Source: a virus (taxonomy: Duplodnaviria; Heunggongvirae; Uroviricota; Caudoviricetes). From it: a stretch of DNA of 35,933 bases. This document shows, piece after piece, positions 1 to 34,952 of the stretch; the first letter of the stretch is position 1, and each line of letters begins with the position of its first letter. Location: the IMG/VR virus record IMGVR_UViG_2684623171_000008. One strand, given 5' to 3'. A model generated the notes under the pieces. It did not search any database. It had not been told where the DNA came from and saw only the letters and a program-made list of their open reading frames with translations. The translations under genes were made by a program, and so were the position numbers.

Positions 1-141
1 TTACTGCTTACACTGTAAGAACGCCGCAAACTCCGCTCCCCAGAAGCTCATCCGTATTTCGCACAGCGAACCGTGCAGCATCCAGATGATGAGGATTGCC
101 GTCACGCAGAACGTGATGGCCGTAAGCGATTTTTGCGACAT
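1..141 (-). CDS. Hok/Gef-family type I toxin-like small membrane protein (46 aa, MSQKSLTAITFCVTAILIIWMLHGSLCEIRMSFWGAEFAAFLQCKQ)
   Basis: Own translation of the minus strand (ATG 141..139, TAA 3..1); ORF too short for the supplied track. N-terminal hydrophobic helix plus SLCEIR and AAF motifs resemble Hok/HokA. Confidence 0.5.
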   Translation of the reverse strand: MSQKSLTAITFCVTAILIIWMLHGSLCEIRMSFWGAEFAAFLQCKQ

Positions 142-331: not shown

Positions 332-592
332 TTAATTCTGAGGTAAAGGCAAACTCATCTGGTTGTTTCCCCTGTGCGAAGCTGGCAGCTCATTCCACGG
401 GATGCCCTCTGAAGAGTGAACGCCGGGAGCGTGTTTCGATGTGAATTTATGGAAAGCCTCCAGTGTTGAGAAGCATACGCCGCATTCCAGATTGTTACAC
501 TGGTAATATTTTTGCCGCACTGTGTTTGAATCATTTTCCGGACGACTGGTGCGGATACGGGCAGATGCGCCACAAAGCGGACAACGGAACAT
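332..592 (-). CDS. ogr: Ogr/Delta-family zinc-finger late-gene transcription activator
   Basis: Begins MFRCPLCG...YYQCNNLECG, the Cys4 pattern of P2 Ogr; AAGGGAGG RBS upstream; lies downstream of D as in P2. Confidence 0.8.
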   Translation of the reverse strand: MFRCPLCGASARIRTSRPENDSNTVRQKYYQCNNLECGVCFSTLEAFHKFTSKHAPGVHSSEGIPWNELPASHRGNNQMSLPLPQN

Positions 593-752: not shown

Positions 753-1358
753 TTATTTAGGTTCATCATAAATTTCGTTTCCATCTTCATCCCTATATCC
801 CTGTAGTCCTGTGAGGTAATCAACAAAATATCCATTCCCTAAATCGGCTTCATGTTCTACCTGATTACTTGTAAAGTACTTTTCGGAAGACATATTCAAA
901 TTATTTGGAAGATGTGTCGAAGGCTCTTCACACCATGATGGTAACTTTTCATCAGGCTTCTGATGTCGATTAAAATTGTTATACAAATCTTTAGGGCATT
1001 GATAGCGGCTTATTCCGTCAAATAAAAACTCGTGAGTTACACATGAGGGATAGTGATTATTGATAAATGATTCCACTAAACAGGCAACTTCTTCAGGGTG
1101 CACAGAAAAACACTCACTTTTACTGCCGGTGCTAAGGTGACGTATACGCTTAACACCAGGTTGAGACTCAAGATATACCAAAAGATTAGACTCAATCTCA
1201 TGAACATCACCGTCTATGATGTTATAAGCAGTGTAAATAAAGAACCCTGGGTTCTGGGATGAGACATGTCTATTCTGCAGACCGCGAGTTGTTTTTCCTA
1301 CTTTTGACCATTGGTGATCATTAATATTAGCACCAACATATATCCAGTTATTGCTCAT
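753..1358 (-). CDS. T5orf172/GIY-YIG-like domain protein (cargo gene between D and ogr)
   Basis: N-terminus WIYVGANIN...KVGKTTRGLQNR fits the IY-(N10)-KIGxT-R pattern of T5orf172/GIY-YIG domains; AT-rich gene with its own upstream promoter-like sequence; no P2 counterpart at this position. Confidence 0.55.
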   Translation of the reverse strand: MSNNWIYVGANINDHQWSKVGKTTRGLQNRHVSSQNPGFFIYTAYNIIDGDVHEIESNLLVYLESQPGVKRIRHLSTGSKSECFSVHPEEVACLVESFINNHYPSCVTHEFLFDGISRYQCPKDLYNNFNRHQKPDEKLPSWCEEPSTHLPNNLNMSSEKYFTSNQVEHEADLGNGYFVDYLTGLQGYRDEDGNEIYDEPK

Positions 1359-8360: not shown

Positions 8361-8390
8361 AAAACCGCTAATGGTCAGATTAGCGGTTTT
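8361..8390. terminator. Perfect 12-bp-stem hairpin between convergent U and invertase (bidirectional terminator-like)
   Basis: AAAACCGCTAAT-GGTCAG-ATTAGCGGTTTT; overlaps the invertase stop codon; T-rich flank on the plus strand. Confidence 0.5.
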
Positions 8391-8979
8391 CATTTTCCTG
8401 AATCTGCCTGATTGTTTCTTCAGCCTGTATATCGCCTACAGGGTGATAACGATAAATCGTCGATATGCCGATGTCGTAAATGATCGCCAGTTGTTTCCTG
8501 TCATGACCGTTTTTAATCAGCCTCGCTATTTGCTCGTGTTGTTCTTTTGTCAACTTCGGGCGACGTCCGCCAATGCGTCCTTGTGCGCGTGCTGCTGCCA
8601 GCCCGGCCAGTGTACGCTCTACAATTAATTCACGTTCCATTTCGGCTAAAGCTCCCATGACGTGAAAAAAGAAACGCCCCATGGGTGTTGATGTGTCAAT
8701 GCTGTCCGTCAGACTACGGAAATTAACACCTTTTTCCCGCAATTCCTCAATAAGCGTGATCAGGTGTTTCATACTTCTGCCCAGTCTGTCCAGCTTCCAG
8801 ACAACCAGCGTATCTCCTTCTGATAGCGTTCTGAGCAGTTTTTTCAATCCCGGTCTGGCTGATTTCGTTCCGCTGATTTTATCTTCAAAAATCAGTTCAC
8901 ATCCTGCGCACTCCAGCGCGTTACGCTGCAATTCTGTATTCTGGTCATTTGTTGATACGCGGACATAGCCAATAAGCAT
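8380..8979 (-). CDS. Serine-recombinase DNA invertase (Gin/Pin/Cin/Hin family)
   Basis: 199 aa; MLIGYVRVSTNDQNT...VVWKLDRLGRSMKHL...GRIGGRRPKLT, with catalytic Ser region and C-terminal HTH; GGGGA RBS. Confidence 0.9.
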   Translation of the reverse strand: MLIGYVRVSTNDQNTELQRNALECAGCELIFEDKISGTKSARPGLKKLLRTLSEGDTLVVWKLDRLGRSMKHLITLIEELREKGVNFRSLTDSIDTSTPMGRFFFHVMGALAEMERELIVERTLAGLAAARAQGRIGGRRPKLTKEQHEQIARLIKNGHDRKQLAIIYDIGISTIYRYHPVGDIQAEETIRQIQENENR

Positions 8980-9431: not shown

Positions 9432-9884
9432 GTGATTTATATGAACGAATATGTTTATAGCGCAAGGCATAATGCTTTTTTCCCTGTGGATATGATTGAT
9501 AAATATAAATCAGAGGGATGGGATTTATCAGACGCTAAGGAAGTAAATCAAAATATTATCAGTGAGTTTATGGCTGAACCGCCACAAGGAAAAATCCGTA
9601 TTGCCGGAGATGATGGGCTGCCTGCGTGGGCAGATATTCCTCCACCCACGCATGAAGAGCTTATTGAAATTACTGAATCAGAAAGACAGCTACTAATTAA
9701 CCAGGCCAACGAATACATGAACAGTAAGCAATGGCCCGGTAAAGCCGCTATTGGTCGTCTGAAAGGTGAGGAACTGGCGCAATATAATTTGTGGCTGGAT
9801 TATCTGGACGCACTGGAACTGGTTGATTCCTCCAGTGCGCCAGATATTGAATGGCCTACGCCTCCGGCAGTTCAGGCCAGATGA
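9432..9884 (+). CDS. Tail fibre assembly chaperone, alternative copy (tfa')
   Basis: 150 aa; C-terminal APDIEWPTPP tail resembles the other tfa (APDVIWPELP); lies inside the invertible segment. Confidence 0.7.
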   Translation: MIYMNEYVYSARHNAFFPVDMIDKYKSEGWDLSDAKEVNQNIISEFMAEPPQGKIRIAGDDGLPAWADIPPPTHEELIEITESERQLLINQANEYMNSKQWPGKAAIGRLKGEELAQYNLWLDYLDALELVDSSSAPDIEWPTPPAVQAR

Positions 9885-24493: not shown

Positions 24494-24805
24494 TTACTCA
24501 GGAAATAACGCCCGGATATTCCCAGCCATCTGGCTGGTTATCTTAGCCACTGGTGCAGACTGTGCTTCAAACTTTTTTGAGCTGATTTGTGTCACAGGTA
24601 ACATCTCATCATCAGCCCATGCGGCCAGTCGGTAAGCCTCTGCCGGATTCGTCTTCAGAAGTGCCAGCCCGGCCAGAAAAGCCACGCGTTGGCCGCTTTT
24701 GCGGGCTTCTGGTGTAAGGCTGTCCAGCCAGGCGCATGCTTCTCCTTCGTTCTTGACGGCGGCGGGCTTCAGATAGAAACTTATCCGTCTGGTTGGTGTC
24801 GTCAT
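24494..24805 (-). CDS. ParR/StbB-like partition adaptor protein
   Basis: 103 aa from ATG 24805 (AAGGAG RBS); ISFYLKP...LDSLTPEARKSGQRVAFLAGLAL...LFPE resembles plasmid R1 ParR; directly follows the parM-like gene. Confidence 0.65.
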   Translation of the reverse strand: MTTPTRRISFYLKPAAVKNEGEACAWLDSLTPEARKSGQRVAFLAGLALLKTNPAEAYRLAAWADDEMLPVTQISSKKFEAQSAPVAKITSQMAGNIRALFPE

Positions 24806-24809
24806 TGGT

Positions 24810-25769
24810 TTACTCCTTGTCCATTGCGTACAGCCCATTAACCAGAGCAAACTGTGGCACCCCGTCCGCGATGAAAGTCGCATTAACTCCGCAGGCTTCG
24901 CGGATAGCGGGTGCCACAATCTCCGCCCCGCCACCGACAACCATCACCCGCCCGTAACCCGAAAAAACCGCCAGCGCGCGGATCACGCGTTGTTTCAGTG
25001 TTTCTTCCTTTTCACGAATAACCGCCATCAGGCTGGCGTAATGCGCGTCATTGTGGATGTGCTGGCGCAGCCAGGCTTCATTATGGCGATGTTCGATAAT
25101 GGTATTGGCGATGTGGTGACTGGTGCGCATACCGTTAGTGGCCATCACCGACAGTACGGCATCGGCCATAAGAGAAACGCCTACGTGTGGATCGCAAAAC
25201 ACCTGGCTGATACCTGCCAGTTGCCCCTGAACCTTTGCCACATCCAGCGTGGTTCCGCCCAAATCCACAATCAGCAGGGATTCAAACGGACTCATGTCAG
25301 CCAGTGCTTTAAAGCCAGCCGGAATGGATTCAGGCATAACCCGTACGTTACGGATAGTGAATGCTTCGCCGTTCTGGTACTCCACCGGGCGCATGACGTT
25401 CGCTTTTTTGCGGTTGATGTTGGCCATGTCCGGCTGTGCGTTTGTGTCGAAATATTCGCTCAGTGGCAGGGTAACAACCACATCCACTTCCTGTGGCGTG
25501 ATGTCTGATTTGACCAGCGCGTGATGAATGGCAATGACATTCACATCGCTGTACTGGTATTGCGTGTCGGTCGTCTGGACAAAGCGATCGCTGACCGGAT
25601 CAAAACCATAGCGCACGCCATCAAGCATGTAGTTAGCAGGCTGCGAGCCACCGAACGGCGCAGACCATTCCGACTTGAAGCTGTTCGGGCTGATGGCGTT
25701 GCGGCGTTCGCCGTTCTCAGTCCATGCCAGCTTGATGTTGGTGGAGCCGTCGTCGATGTAAATTTTCAT
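24810..25769 (-). CDS. ParM/StbA-like actin-type segregation ATPase
   Basis: 319 aa; MKIYIDDGSTNIKL, LIVDLGGTTLD and VMVVGGGAEI are actin-fold phosphate and adenosine motifs; extensive resemblance to R1 ParM as recalled from memory. Confidence 0.85.
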   Translation of the reverse strand: MKIYIDDGSTNIKLAWTENGERRNAISPNSFKSEWSAPFGGSQPANYMLDGVRYGFDPVSDRFVQTTDTQYQYSDVNVIAIHHALVKSDITPQEVDVVVTLPLSEYFDTNAQPDMANINRKKANVMRPVEYQNGEAFTIRNVRVMPESIPAGFKALADMSPFESLLIVDLGGTTLDVAKVQGQLAGISQVFCDPHVGVSLMADAVLSVMATNGMRTSHHIANTIIEHRHNEAWLRQHIHNDAHYASLMAVIREKEETLKQRVIRALAVFSGYGRVMVVGGGAEIVAPAIREACGVNATFIADGVPQFALVNGLYAMDKE

Positions 25770-32383: not shown

Positions 32384-32692
32384 ATGCTTATCGGTGAAAA
32401 AATTAGAGTGATTCGTGAATCAGAGGATTTAACGCGCGAAGAATTTTGCGGCCTGATTGATGTGCCTATCGGCACTTTGCGTCGTTATGAAACGGGGCGG
32501 ATTGAAAACATAGGGGGCGAAGTGCTTATCAAGATTGTTAATCACCCTCGCTTTTTTAAGTACATGAATTGGCTTATGACGGGAAAAACAAATGAGGCTG
32601 CTGGGCAGATCAGTCCGTCTCTCTCCCCTGATGGGCCAAAAAGCACATCGCCTTCTCAAAAACCCCGCAAGACTGGCACACAGCCCGGCTAA
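32384..32692 (+). CDS. C: Immunity repressor C (P2 C-like)
   Basis: Start at ATG 32384 (AGGAA RBS); GEKIRVIRESEDLTREEF...GTLRRYETGR HTH region resembles P2 C. Confidence 0.75.
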   Translation: MLIGEKIRVIRESEDLTREEFCGLIDVPIGTLRRYETGRIENIGGEVLIKIVNHPRFFKYMNWLMTGKTNEAAGQISPSLSPDGPKSTSPSQKPRKTGTQPG

Positions 32693-32741: not shown

Positions 32742-33719
32742 ATGAGCATAAAATCAATTCCGGGAGGGTATCTTCTTGACATGCGCCCTGAGGGGCGTAA
32801 AGGCAAACGCATTCGCAAAAAATTTAAAACGAAATCGGATGCAGTTTTATATGAGCGGTGGGTGCTGGCGCAACAGCATAACAATGAGTGGAAAGGAAAC
32901 TCTATTGATCGCCGTCCTCTGTCAGTGCTTATTGACTTGTGGTGGAAATACCACGGCCAGCTAATGAAGTCAGGGCATAACACGCGCCTTAAATTGCTGC
33001 GCTTGAGTGAGGCAATGGATGACCCGTGCGTGCATAAACTTAATACAACAATGCTCACCGAGCTACGTGTGTCCAGGATAGAGCAGGGGATACAGCCCAG
33101 CACCATAAATCGAGAGATTGGGGCGTTAAGCGCGATGTTTACCGCACTCATCTCATCCGGCCATTTTCTTAATGATAACCCCGTTCAAGGCCTTAAAGGA
33201 ATGAAGGTTAACGAGCGTGAAATGGGATATCTGAGTAAGTCTGAATGTGTTCAGTTGCTGGATGCACTGGCTGAAAATCCCGATGAACGGCTGGCTGTCG
33301 AAATCCTTCTGTCGACCGGGGCGCGATGGGGCGAGGTAGCGGCACTGGAGCAGCGCCGTGTTCTTCATTGTCGAATCACTTTTTCAAAAACGAAGAACAG
33401 CAAAAACCGTACCGTTCCTATTTCTGAAAGCCTGTTTGAAAAGATCAAAAAACGGGGCGGGAAACTGGTGTTTCCGACGCTGGATTATCCATTGGTTCGC
33501 GATGTCATCAAAACGGTCGCACCTGATGTTCCCGACGGCCAGGCTGTTCATGCGCTGCGCCACACCTTCGCCAGTCATTTCATGATGAACGGCGGCAATA
33601 TTCTGACGCTCCAGAAAATTCTGGGGCACGCAAAGATTCAGACAACGATGATTTATGCCCATCTTGCGCCGGATTACTTGCAGGATGCGGTGAGGTTTAA
33701 TCCCTTGGGAGGAATGTAA
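32742..33719 (+). CDS. int: Tyrosine integrase (P2 Int-like)
   Basis: 325 aa from ATG 32742; MSIKSIPGGYLLDMRPEGRKGKRIRKKF, LSTGARWGE, HALRHTFASHF and ILGH...MIYAHLAP resemble P2 Int. Confidence 0.9.
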   Translation: MSIKSIPGGYLLDMRPEGRKGKRIRKKFKTKSDAVLYERWVLAQQHNNEWKGNSIDRRPLSVLIDLWWKYHGQLMKSGHNTRLKLLRLSEAMDDPCVHKLNTTMLTELRVSRIEQGIQPSTINREIGALSAMFTALISSGHFLNDNPVQGLKGMKVNEREMGYLSKSECVQLLDALAENPDERLAVEILLSTGARWGEVAALEQRRVLHCRITFSKTKNSKNRTVPISESLFEKIKKRGGKLVFPTLDYPLVRDVIKTVAPDVPDGQAVHALRHTFASHFMMNGGNILTLQKILGHAKIQTTMIYAHLAPDYLQDAVRFNPLGGM

Positions 33720-33721
33720 CT

Positions 33722-34222
33722 ATGGAAATAAAAAAACCTACAAAAAAAGAGTTATATGACTATTTACTATCGAAATATATAGAAGATAAATGCAAAGAAG
33801 AAGCTGATGAAATCAATAAGAAGTCGATGAGTCGTGTCAAAAAACATAAAGAGCGGCTGATGGAGATTACGCCAGAAATCTTCTTCCGTTTCTTGTCTGA
33901 GAAGGGGGTCTCCAGTGTCTGCCCTTCATGTGGATCGTCGCGATTATCTATTCCTGAAAGTATGGATCTTTGTTGGGATAAAAATAAGAAACCAGAAAAT
34001 TTTAACAATCTACCCTTGGAGGAGCAGAGTGAGTTAATTAAAGAGAACATAAAGCATTATGTATCTTATACTTTTTTTGGTGATGTTAAGAGCATACCTG
34101 ATATGCGCAAAACTTATTACACGCTGCATTGCCTGAATTGTGGTTACCTGAGCCTTTACCGTACGTCTGCGGTGCTGAAGTGGTTGGAGAAAGACAAAGC
34201 GCAGGATGGTGAAAATGGGTAA
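33722..34222 (+). CDS. Hypothetical zinc-ribbon protein (166 aa; CPSCG...CLNCG), AT-rich cargo
   Basis: ATG 2 nt after the int stop; two Cys pairs; no recognisable family. Confidence 0.5.
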   Translation: MEIKKPTKKELYDYLLSKYIEDKCKEEADEINKKSMSRVKKHKERLMEITPEIFFRFLSEKGVSSVCPSCGSSRLSIPESMDLCWDKNKKPENFNNLPLEEQSELIKENIKHYVSYTFFGDVKSIPDMRKTYYTLHCLNCGYLSLYRTSAVLKWLEKDKAQDGENG

Positions 34223-34760
34223 TGCAGCAAGAAACCTTTTCGGTAATTCAGCAGGTAGTATGTCGCATTCTGAGCGTGATGTGCTTTATCATGGCGGCGA
34301 TGGCGGCAGTAGTGGAGGCGGAATGTCAGATAAACTTGAAAGGCGAATTGAGCGACTCGAAGGTGATTTATCGCTAACAAGAAACGACCTTGCGACGCTT
34401 ACTGAACGCACTACAAACCTCTCAACCAAAGCTGATGTTGGTGAGGTGAAAGGTGAGCTCAAAGCAGACATTGCTCATCTGAAAGGTGATCTTAAATGCG
34501 ATATTGCGAATCTAAAAGGTGAGCTTAAATCTGATACAGCTCACCTGAAAGAGCAGCTCAAATCAGACATTAACAGCCTGAAGGGTGAGCTTACCGAAGC
34601 GATGGATAAACGCTTTGACAAGATTATGGATGAGATGAATCGGCGGTTTGACAAGGTTGATGATAATACGAAGTGGCGTTGGAGTGGCATTATTGTGCCA
34701 GTATGCACAACCATTTTCACGGCGGCGGTTGCTGTATTTGTTGCTAAATTTGTTGGCTGA
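34206..34760 (+). CDS. Coiled-coil protein with tandem 11-residue repeats and a C-terminal TM anchor (start uncertain; ATG 34323 has a GGAGG RBS)
   Basis: Repeats DIAHLKGDLKC / DIANLKGELKS / DTAHLKEQLKS / DINSLKGELTE; hydrophobic C-terminus IIVPVCTTIFTAAVAVFVAKFV. Confidence 0.5.
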   Translation: MVKMGNAARNLFGNSAGSMSHSERDVLYHGGDGGSSGGGMSDKLERRIERLEGDLSLTRNDLATLTERTTNLSTKADVGEVKGELKADIAHLKGDLKCDIANLKGELKSDTAHLKEQLKSDINSLKGELTEAMDKRFDKIMDEMNRRFDKVDDNTKWRWSGIIVPVCTTIFTAAVAVFVAKFVG

Positions 34761-34869
34761 TGATCCACAAATTGACCACATCCCTGTTATTTGTTGTGGT
34801 TGGCTGTGTTTTTGTGTGTCTGTAAGTCTTTGATAATTATCTAACTTATTGATTTTTGCTTGTGTTTAT

Positions 34870-34894
34870 GGCCGCTCTGCGGCCTTTTTTCTTT
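34870..34894 (+). terminator. Rho-independent terminator
   Basis: GGCCGC-TCT-GCGGCC followed by TTTTTT. Confidence 0.5.
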
Positions 34895-34952
34895 TCACTG
34901 TCGAAGAGTCACCGTAAAATCAACGCCATGACACTTCAGCAGAACGGATACC

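Follow-up and report, generated by a model that had tools for sequence, protein, structure and literature searches.

A conserved zinc-ribbon and tail-anchored coiled-coil gene pair between the integrase gene and attachment site of a P2-like Escherichia coli prophage

The virus record IMGVR_UViG_2684623171_000008, a stretch of 35,933 nucleotides (the window), carries a P2-like prophage of Escherichia coli in which two small genes, ORF1 and ORF2, directly follow the integrase gene int. Do these genes belong to the phage or to the host chromosome, do they form a pair, and what might they do in the lysogen? Here we report that ORF1 and ORF2 are genuine cargo of the P2-like prophage. As judged by sequence comparison, they represent a conserved, fast-varying accessory cassette that recurs in many enterobacterial prophages, for which exclusion of other phages is our best guess at a function.

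Prophage boundary and operon context

The window region is 100% identical to E. coli O157:H7 FRIK944 and six further complete genomes, and the RefSeq annotation of the FRIK944 record places a complete P2-like prophage between ihfA and btuC. Homology to genomes with an empty site, sampled across all 5426 complete E. coli genomes, begins at window position 34870. In K-12 JM109 this empty site consists of ihfA, ~100 bp and btuC, with neither ORF1 nor ORF2; the original prediction had proposed exactly this comparison as the one that could refute phage membership. A 25-bp core, GGCCGCTCTGCGGCCTTTTTTCTTT, occupies 34870-34894, inside the interval of 34761-34952 where the attachment (att) site had been expected, and a second copy lies directly after ihfA at the other prophage end. 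As the empty site lacks both genes and the core is repeated at both ends, ORF1 and ORF2 lie inside the prophage.

The opposite reading, that the two are host island genes at the btuC locus, is ruled out by the empty-site comparison. Moreover, ORF2 was detected in just 39 of the 5426 genomes, and every copy with an inspected neighbourhood follows an integrase gene within att repeats. In addition, the same kind of pair follows C and int in a 32-kb P2-like record from Klebsiella, which was submitted as a replicon of its own (“plasmid unnamed”). No support was found for a host origin, which retains practically no probability.

The right copy of the core, which reads GGCCGCTCTGCGGCC then TTTTTTCTTT on the plus strand, is also the intrinsic terminator of ihfA and marks the right prophage boundary. 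The terminator recognised earlier behind the two genes corresponds to a hairpin (34870-34884) with its T-run, but a phage-owned terminator at 34870-34894 is ruled out, since the element is the att core and ihfA terminator itself. It probably ends the C-int-ORF1-ORF2 transcript. A stretch of 109 bp separates the ORF2 stop from the core (34761-34869, 33% GC); it is assigned to the phage-side att arm, because 299 E. coli genomes conserve it irrespective of the cargo in front. Inspection by eye found CCACA-type motifs in both phage-side arms, namely GACCACAT, ATCCACAA and TTGTGGTT at 34761-34869 of the window and GTCCACAT and TTCCACTA in the attL arm (locus L002, 37230-37300); these are candidate integrase arm-binding sites. 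The left att falls outside the window.

From the ihfA side, the prophage contains hok/gef, ogr, tail and head genes, ParM/StbB, the replication endonuclease and early genes, in this order, and its btuC-proximal part consists of the C repressor, the integrase, ORF1 and ORF2, followed by btuC. The C-type repressor gene (32384-32692; Pfam HTH_3, helix-turn-helix; phrog_147; RefSeq coding sequence) is the first of the lysogenic operon, and is followed by the P2-type tyrosine integrase gene (32742-33719; Pfam Int_N 2e-28, Phage_integrase 4e-20; RefSeq coding sequence); both are on the plus strand, as are all features of ORF1 and ORF2 given below. The int stop codon TAA is at 33717-33719 and the ATG of ORF1 at 33722, which leaves a gap of 2 nt as originally described, and a GGAGGA motif is found 9 nt upstream of this ATG. 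Consensus scanning gave no plus-strand promoter between int and ORF2. Because of the 2-nt gap and the lack of a consensus promoter between int and ORF1, co-transcription of ORF1-ORF2 with C-int is plausible. Both genes had been called AT-rich, which holds for ORF1 (38% GC compared to 52.5% for the prophage), whereas ORF2, at 45%, is merely mildly so.

Conserved pairing, gene anatomy and block exchange

Every ORF1-family gene inspected is abutted or overlapped by an ORF2-type gene (20 of 20 loci, from several genera), and this recurrence indicates that the pair does not consist of chance ORFs. The ORF1 partners were recognised by profile matches of 1e-23 to 1e-66, and by hhalign at 98.6-99.2% for further alleles, whereas the ORF2 partners aligned (hhalign 98%, E 1.9e-13) over the end of the N-terminal peptide, the Gly-rich linker and the first helix. 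Two of the loci came from a contig scan with back-translated patterns, which are narrow.

The pair is found at very different places. It occupies the int-att slot in P2-like prophages of E. coli, Salmonella, Klebsiella and Providencia, but lies upstream of the tape-measure gene in the siphoviruses SPN3UB, 29485 and ST101-KPC2phi6.1 and also in Klebsiella prophages. In a Pectobacterium P2-like prophage it sits between the baseplate V and tail S genes, in a Yersinia prophage between the genes of an 825-aa protein and a tailspike, and in Buttiauxella between int and a cI-type repressor gene; in Serratia it adjoins an ORF6N-domain gene with an Arc gene nearby, and P22-like prophages carry it as well. 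In Mixta/Pantoea (L030, 3001-3658) the cassette stands alone as a 0.8-kb low-GC islet (44% versus 55%), flanked by the gene of a CdaR-like regulator and by DUF3461/dapD; no phage gene lies within 3 kb of it. A contribution of the cassette to integration is ruled out, since it occurs also far from any int.

ORF1 (33722-34222) encodes a 166-aa four-Cys zinc-ribbon protein, predicted to be cytoplasmic. As proposed from the sequence at the outset, it has two CxxC knuckles (residues 67-70 and 137-140), and all four Cys residues are invariant in 38 homologues, together with F57, Y133, G141, V151 and W154. The family signature comprises the two knuckles and the conserved residues P51, F57, L58, G62, Y133, V151 and W154. 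The AlphaFold model (mean predicted local distance difference test, pLDDT, 91.6) begins with a long N-terminal helix, continues with a short helix and a zinc-ribbon sheet and ends in a C-terminal helix. Fold search with this model gave no informative structural neighbour, sequence search of the PDB gave nothing, and no Pfam or NCBIfam family was found above threshold for ORF1 or for the other alleles scanned. Its sole family match is phrog_4293 (1.2e-22), of unknown function. Searches of the phage collection with ORF1, by megablast and tblastn, also returned nothing, the phage relatives being reached only via the short allele. The family is small, with 86 representatives at 50% identity among 1.84 billion proteins, and the named matches all come from Enterobacterales, including Escherichia, Shigella, Salmonella, Klebsiella, Providencia, Buttiauxella, Serratia, Pectobacterium, Pantoea/Mixta and Yersinia. 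The isoelectric points of the family, mostly 5-6 and thus mildly acidic, fit protein binding better than general nucleic-acid binding.

ORF2 (34215-34760) encodes a 181-aa tail-anchored coiled-coil protein that resembles DUF1640/CCDC90. It consists of an N-terminal peptide (residues 1-26; 34215-34292), a Gly-rich linker GGDGGSSGGG (residues 27-36; 34293-34322), a helical N-terminal part, the motif LSTKAD (residues 69-74; 34419-34436), a stalk of 11-residue repeats, or hendecads, and a C-terminal transmembrane (TM) anchor (about residues 155-178; 34677-34748). The monomeric AlphaFold2 model is of low confidence (pLDDT 61, with residues 1-31 below 50); it shows a disordered segment 1-36, a helix 37-68, a break at 69-71 that coincides with LSTKAD, a helix 72-146 and a terminal helix 150-180. 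The C-terminal anchor, part of the initial description, corresponds to this terminal hydrophobic helix, and the hydrophobic segment is kept in all homologues. Since ORF2 lacks a signal sequence, has Lys/Arg residues before the TM helix and is partnered with a Cys4 protein, we infer that it is tail-anchored in the inner membrane with its stalk in the cytoplasm. Sequence search of the PDB gave weak coiled-coil matches only, among them one to 6h9l, an entry of three chains with 11-residue repeats (E 0.2).

The repeat array occupies 34428-34592 and contains five tandem 33-nt units, KADVGEVKGEL, KADIAHLKGDL, KCDIANLKGEL, KSDTAHLKEQL and KSDINSLKGEL; Tandem Repeats Finder (TRF) detects the 33-nt period at 34447-34571. 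The coiled coil and repeats noticed earlier are thus real, but the units number five at the protein level, not four. The stalks of near-identical ORF2 alleles contain 2, 3, 4, 5, 6 or 7 exact hendecads. Elsewhere in the window, 29 nt of the tail-fibre region (9741-9769) are 72-83% identical to the hendecad-repeat DNA (repeat family D1), a likeness most likely due to chance.

The start of ORF2 is most likely ATG 34215, which overlaps the ORF1 stop by 8 nt and is preceded by AGGA 8 nt upstream. RefSeq annotates only 34323-34760 (MSDKLERR, 145 aa), and a further alternative start is at 34206. Several features favour the upstream ATG: the frame upstream of the RefSeq start is uninterrupted at all loci examined; what it encodes, also in distant relatives, is a short peptide followed by a Gly-rich linker, which in the siphovirus versions reads ...FP(K/Q)HGGGG...; and, among the 17 loci with tabulated junctions, the 8-nt overlap (ATGnnnTAA/TGA-type) occurs in 11 and a Shine-Dalgarno-like motif 5-10 nt upstream of this start in 13. 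The RefSeq start is therefore probably ~36 codons too short in many genomes. Nevertheless, Met37 after the linker (34323) is invariant in all ORF2 homologues, and the Gly codons form a GGAGG 4-7 nt upstream of its equivalent in 11 of the 17 loci, as well as, by direct reading, in the window and in locus L010. The internal ATG is either a widespread start misannotation or a genuine dual start.

Comparison of closely related prophages revealed a modular exchange. Between the conserved int and the att arm, the 299 E. coli genomes hold at least five different contents, and only part of these prophages at the ihfA-btuC site have the cassette. The commonest content (159 of 299 genomes) is an unrelated single gene of the STEC409 type (L006, 3609-4004), whose 131-aa product has no Cys4 motif, no TM helix and no PADLOC match; that it represents a divergent ORF1 is ruled out by an hhalign probability of 1.4%. 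The cassette types comprise that of the window with a 166-aa ORF1, that of STEC388/TUM1880 with a 132-aa ORF1 of 22-23% identity in multiple alignment, and the types of RM9088/CREC-591 and W13-16. Altogether, at least four very divergent alleles, with ORF1 proteins 22-31% identical, lie between flanks 93-100% identical. Sliding-window comparison with TUM1880 and STEC388 showed at least 93% identity per 40-nt window up to ~33700 and again from ~34308, but 7-53% in between, where identity falls to that of random sequence. This collapse indicates that ORF1 and the first ~30 codons of ORF2 (33700-34307) are exchanged as one block, whose right breakpoint lies within the Gly-linker codons; ORF2 is matched only from query nt 88 in at least 14 genomes. 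The class of the N-terminal peptide, which is predicted to be disordered and lies inside the block, shifts with the class of ORF1 in all other loci too, and for this reason we propose that the peptide may serve as a dock for ORF1.

A possible role in phage exclusion

What might such a cassette do? We propose, with a probability of roughly 40%, that it encodes a membrane-tethered two-protein complex that is made in the lysogen and excludes or aborts other phages. In this model, ORF1-ORF2, a translationally coupled accessory (“moron”) cassette in the int-to-attP slot, would most likely be read from the lysogenic C-int transcript up to the att-core terminator. The C-terminal helix of ORF2 would reside in the inner membrane, and the hendecad stalk, probably trimeric by analogy with DUF1640 proteins, would project into the cytoplasm. 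The flexible Gly-rich linker would end in the N-terminal peptide, and this would hold ORF1 at a fixed distance from the membrane, on its cytoplasmic side. ORF1 would confer specificity or act as the sensor, and ORF2 would serve as membrane tether or effector, together protecting the lysogen by superinfection exclusion or abortive infection. An anti-phage role is our best guess because the cassette is optional, moves between the slots of unrelated phages, can stand alone, has divergent alleles between conserved flanks and lies in a reported, minor defence hotspot. Moreover, the divergence of ORF1, its co-exchange with the ORF2 N-terminal peptide and the varying hendecad number give an arms-race-like pattern.

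In P2-like phages, the interval between int and att has been described as a minor hotspot of defence systems (PMC13586616). The cassette shares the traits of cargo at this position, as it is located between int and att, inside the element, and differs among close prophages. However, that survey counted recognisable defence systems, and ORF1 and ORF2 match none in PADLOC-DB v2.0.0; neither DUF1640 nor CCDC90 appears in its main text. For ORF1, the sole row in PADLOC-DB is DUF3800_VII (E 0.0047), which is no significant component match, and ORF2 meets only coiled-coil stretches of ZorA, LmuB and LeoBC. The other cassette alleles gave no PADLOC matches.

As functional analogues only, lambda RexA/RexB, in which a cytoplasmic sensor is paired with a membrane protein, and the single-gene membrane morons HK97 gp15 and P22 SieA may be mentioned as prophage exclusion or abortive-infection genes. 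All are optional and vary among related prophages; their products work at the inner membrane, and their genes are expressed with or beside the lysogenic operon or from moron slots among the tail genes. The cassette shows no sequence or fold similarity to these systems, and ORF2 has a single TM helix with a long stalk rather than a polytopic channel.

Several points weigh against an anti-phage function. The cassette has no homology to known defence proteins, the PADLOC rows being coiled-coil noise for ORF2 and nothing real for ORF1. The contact between ORF1 and ORF2 rests on co-variation over few allele classes. Location in the hotspot is weak evidence, as the int-att slot holds just 3% of the recognisable P2 defence systems (PMC13586616). 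Morons also carry functions other than defence, the number of 33-bp repeats could vary by neutral slippage, and stalk proteins of the same type that stand alone in other elements adjoin replication or partition genes, which points to a different kind of role.

A more specific version of the exclusion model is tentative and, taken as a whole, rather doubtful. Here, a hypervariable zinc-ribbon sensor would dock onto a tail-anchored coiled-coil “ruler” by way of its exchangeable N-terminal peptide, the two forming a new two-component exclusion or abortive-infection system. The length of the ruler would be set in whole hendecads, from 2 to 7, each of ~1.6 nm by our own estimate, and the internal start at the invariant Met may yield an ORF2 isoform that lacks the partner.

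Relatives of the stalk, rival explanations and other cargo

The original prediction recognised neither family with confidence. This stands for ORF1, which has no Pfam or fold match, but ORF2 matches Pfam PF07798 (DUF1640) with 26.5 bits (E 6.7e-6), below the gathering cut-off of 33.5, and several of its close homologues carry a precomputed PF07798 match, and RefSeq names ORF2 itself DUF1640/CCDC90. In this family, the start of the stalk is marked by a β-layer motif, [aliphatic]-A-T-K-[polar]-[DE], as described by the Lupas group (PMC4786415). The LSTKAD of ORF2 agrees with the motif except for Ser in place of Ala, and T71, K72 and D74 are invariant in 22 homologues. Like MCUR1, CCDC90B and their prokaryotic homologues, ORF2 combines a helical N-terminal part, the β-layer motif, a coiled-coil stalk and a single C-terminal TM anchor, and its stalk would also be on the cytoplasm/matrix side. 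Unlike them, it has in addition the N-terminal peptide, the Gly-rich linker, an obligatory zinc-ribbon partner gene and a variable number of hendecads. The likeness implies no link to calcium or proline metabolism.

This resemblance to DUF1640/CCDC90 raises the question of whether the cassette changes host physiology or virulence by lysogenic conversion, for example as a scaffold that alters a host inner-membrane complex in the manner of mitochondrial MCUR1/CCDC90B. The hosts of cassette-bearing prophages do include lineages of Shiga toxin-producing E. coli (STEC), and related genes with an XhlA domain, located beside cI in phages of Mannheimia, have been proposed to be virulence factors (PMC4553209). 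Nevertheless, no host partner is indicated, and the hypervariability of ORF1 fits mobile-element conflict better than a fixed host target. The “haemolysin” label of Pfam XhlA, moreover, appears to be a naming mix-up, in which an unrelated Xenorhabdus protein was apparently confused with PBSX XhlA. We thus consider conversion quite improbable.

The XhlA family itself bears on a further possibility, namely that ORF2 is a lysis accessory that works with a holin as PBSX XhlA does, with ORF1 as its regulator. PBSX XhlA (PF10779) is likewise a small tail-anchored coiled-coil phage protein, and the two share the order of coiled coil, KW-type motif and TM helix. Short ORF2-type partners match this family with 26.4 and 19.6 bits (7.7e-6 and 1e-3), below the cut-off of 34.7, and ORF2 has weak phrog matches to holin and spanin families. 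However, the window ORF2 itself has no XhlA match, and whereas PBSX XhlA is encoded in a lysis cassette with holin and amidase, the pair lies outside the lysis module here and never within a lysis cassette in the loci inspected. The prophage already possesses a holin, an endolysin, a DUF2570 gene in the LysB position and an Rz1-like LysC, and the cassette is optional among near-identical prophages and oriented with the lysogenic operon. A part in lysis has accordingly little likelihood.

ORF2 also resembles the Bdr proteins, inner-membrane proteins of Borrelia cp32 prophages with 11-residue KID repeats of unknown function (PMC10016077, PMC4370689), whose KID/KIE tripeptide signature is IPR003900 (PMC4370689). 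Both are prophage-borne, with central 11-residue repeats and a C-terminal hydrophobic anchor. Pairwise comparison gave 3e-13 by BLASTP against a set of four sequences and 4e-6 by tblastn, a similarity that may partly reflect repeat composition. Bdr repeats vary in copy number, as do those of ORF2. The Borrelia miyamotoi Bdr examined (L032, 1375-2049) has 11-mers of the SDIMSVKSDLK type. By contrast, the ORF2 repeats contain neither KID nor KIE but read K-A/S/C-D-I/T, with the consensus K-[ASC]-D-[IT]-A-x-L-K-G-E-L, and Bdr proteins lack the Gly-linker peptide and the zinc-ribbon partner and belong to another phylum and another element. Although Bdr has been described as unique to Borrelia, the motif order and the 11-residue repeats are common to the DUF1640-type stalks of APSE-1, the Liberibacter phages and the present E. 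coli prophage, which suggests that Bdr and DUF1640-type stalks might be one wider mobile-element family.

Solitary stalk proteins are encoded by the Liberibacter phages SC1/SC2 (gp27), by APSE-1 (P47) and by an Aliivibrio conjugative plasmid (a DUF1640 protein). They share with ORF2 an ATKAD motif, 11-residue ELKxDIAxV(R/K) repeats, a KW motif and a TM helix, with 32-43% identity over the stalk, but have no N-terminal peptide, Gly linker or adjacent ORF1-type gene. Their neighbourhoods are one argument for a replicon- or DNA-related tether, in which the stalk would anchor replication, partition or genome positioning to the inner membrane via a zinc-ribbon adaptor: such proteins adjoin the replication/partition locus of Borrelia cp32 prophages (PMC10016077), the primase gene in Liberibacter phage SC2 and the DNA polymerase gene in APSE-1. 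In line with a tether, the present prophage carries ParM/StbB and hok, and the Klebsiella P2-like genome with the cassette was deposited as a plasmid. On the other hand, the cassette is ~9 kb from parM in the window, the inspected stretches of many cassette-bearing phages lack partition genes, the proteins of the ORF1 family are mildly acidic, and the cassette is also found on its own in a chromosome. A housekeeping tether would likewise not be expected to show such extreme divergence among ORF1 alleles, and we regard this reading as unlikely.

Two small overlapping genes also recall a toxin-antitoxin layout, in which ORF2 would be a membrane toxin restrained by the upstream, translationally coupled ORF1. 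This layout is the sole resemblance to such a module; in addition, the downstream product is a membrane protein, and hok lies at the other prophage end. Zinc-ribbon antitoxins do exist, MqsA being one, but MqsA appeared only as a non-significant row in the Foldseek search with ORF1. In addition, neither protein has homology to any toxin-antitoxin family, known membrane toxins do not resemble the stalk of ORF2, which exceeds 100 residues, and ORF2-type proteins stand alone in other phages. A toxin-antitoxin pair is therefore a rather improbable interpretation, and exclusion of other phages remains the reading we prefer.

The prophage contains further cargo. A Hok/Gef family toxin gene (window 1-141, minus strand; Pfam 4e-7) is located between ogr (332-592, minus strand) and the left att, so that both prophage ends bear small att-adjoining cargo. 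A plasmid partition pair of the ParM and StbB type (24494-25769, minus strand) lies in the gpA-gpQ slot, where P2-like phages have their main defence hotspot, and has no PADLOC match; together with hok, it suggests that the phage may persist as an episome too. An orphan ORF of 201 aa between gene D and ogr (753-1358, minus strand), without Pfam or PADLOC match, may define a third cargo slot. Finally, a DNA invertase gene of the recombinase family (8380-8979, minus strand) adjoins alternative tail-fibre and tail-fibre-assembly genes, as given by the RefSeq annotation only, an arrangement that suggests host-range switching.

The int-att slot of P2-like phages and the DUF1640 stalk family were already known. 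In the literature and libraries searched, no description was found of the zinc-ribbon pairing, the co-exchange of ORF1 and the N-terminal peptide, the swappable, putative docking peptide or the quantised stalk; the accessions, phrog identifiers and architecture of the cassette gave no literature match, and none is present in the supplement of one hotspot paper. The identity of the terminator with the att core, and the recognition of the pair as a widespread conserved cassette, go beyond the original prediction.

With a length of ~1 kb, a location in E. coli and a natural allele series of at least four ORF1 classes and 2-7 repeats, the cassette lends itself to tests of anti-phage activity and of how much the length of the tether and the specificity of the partner matter. 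A phenotype, if found, would reveal a defence or exclusion system overlooked by current finders and provide the first functional handle on a family that spans Borrelia Bdr, the phages of insect symbionts and plant pathogens, and mitochondria. If the ruler version of the model is true, the cassette would be the first tractable E. coli model for what DUF1640/Bdr-type stalks do in the Borrelia cp32, APSE and Liberibacter prophages and, more indirectly, for mitochondrial MCUR1/CCDC90B.

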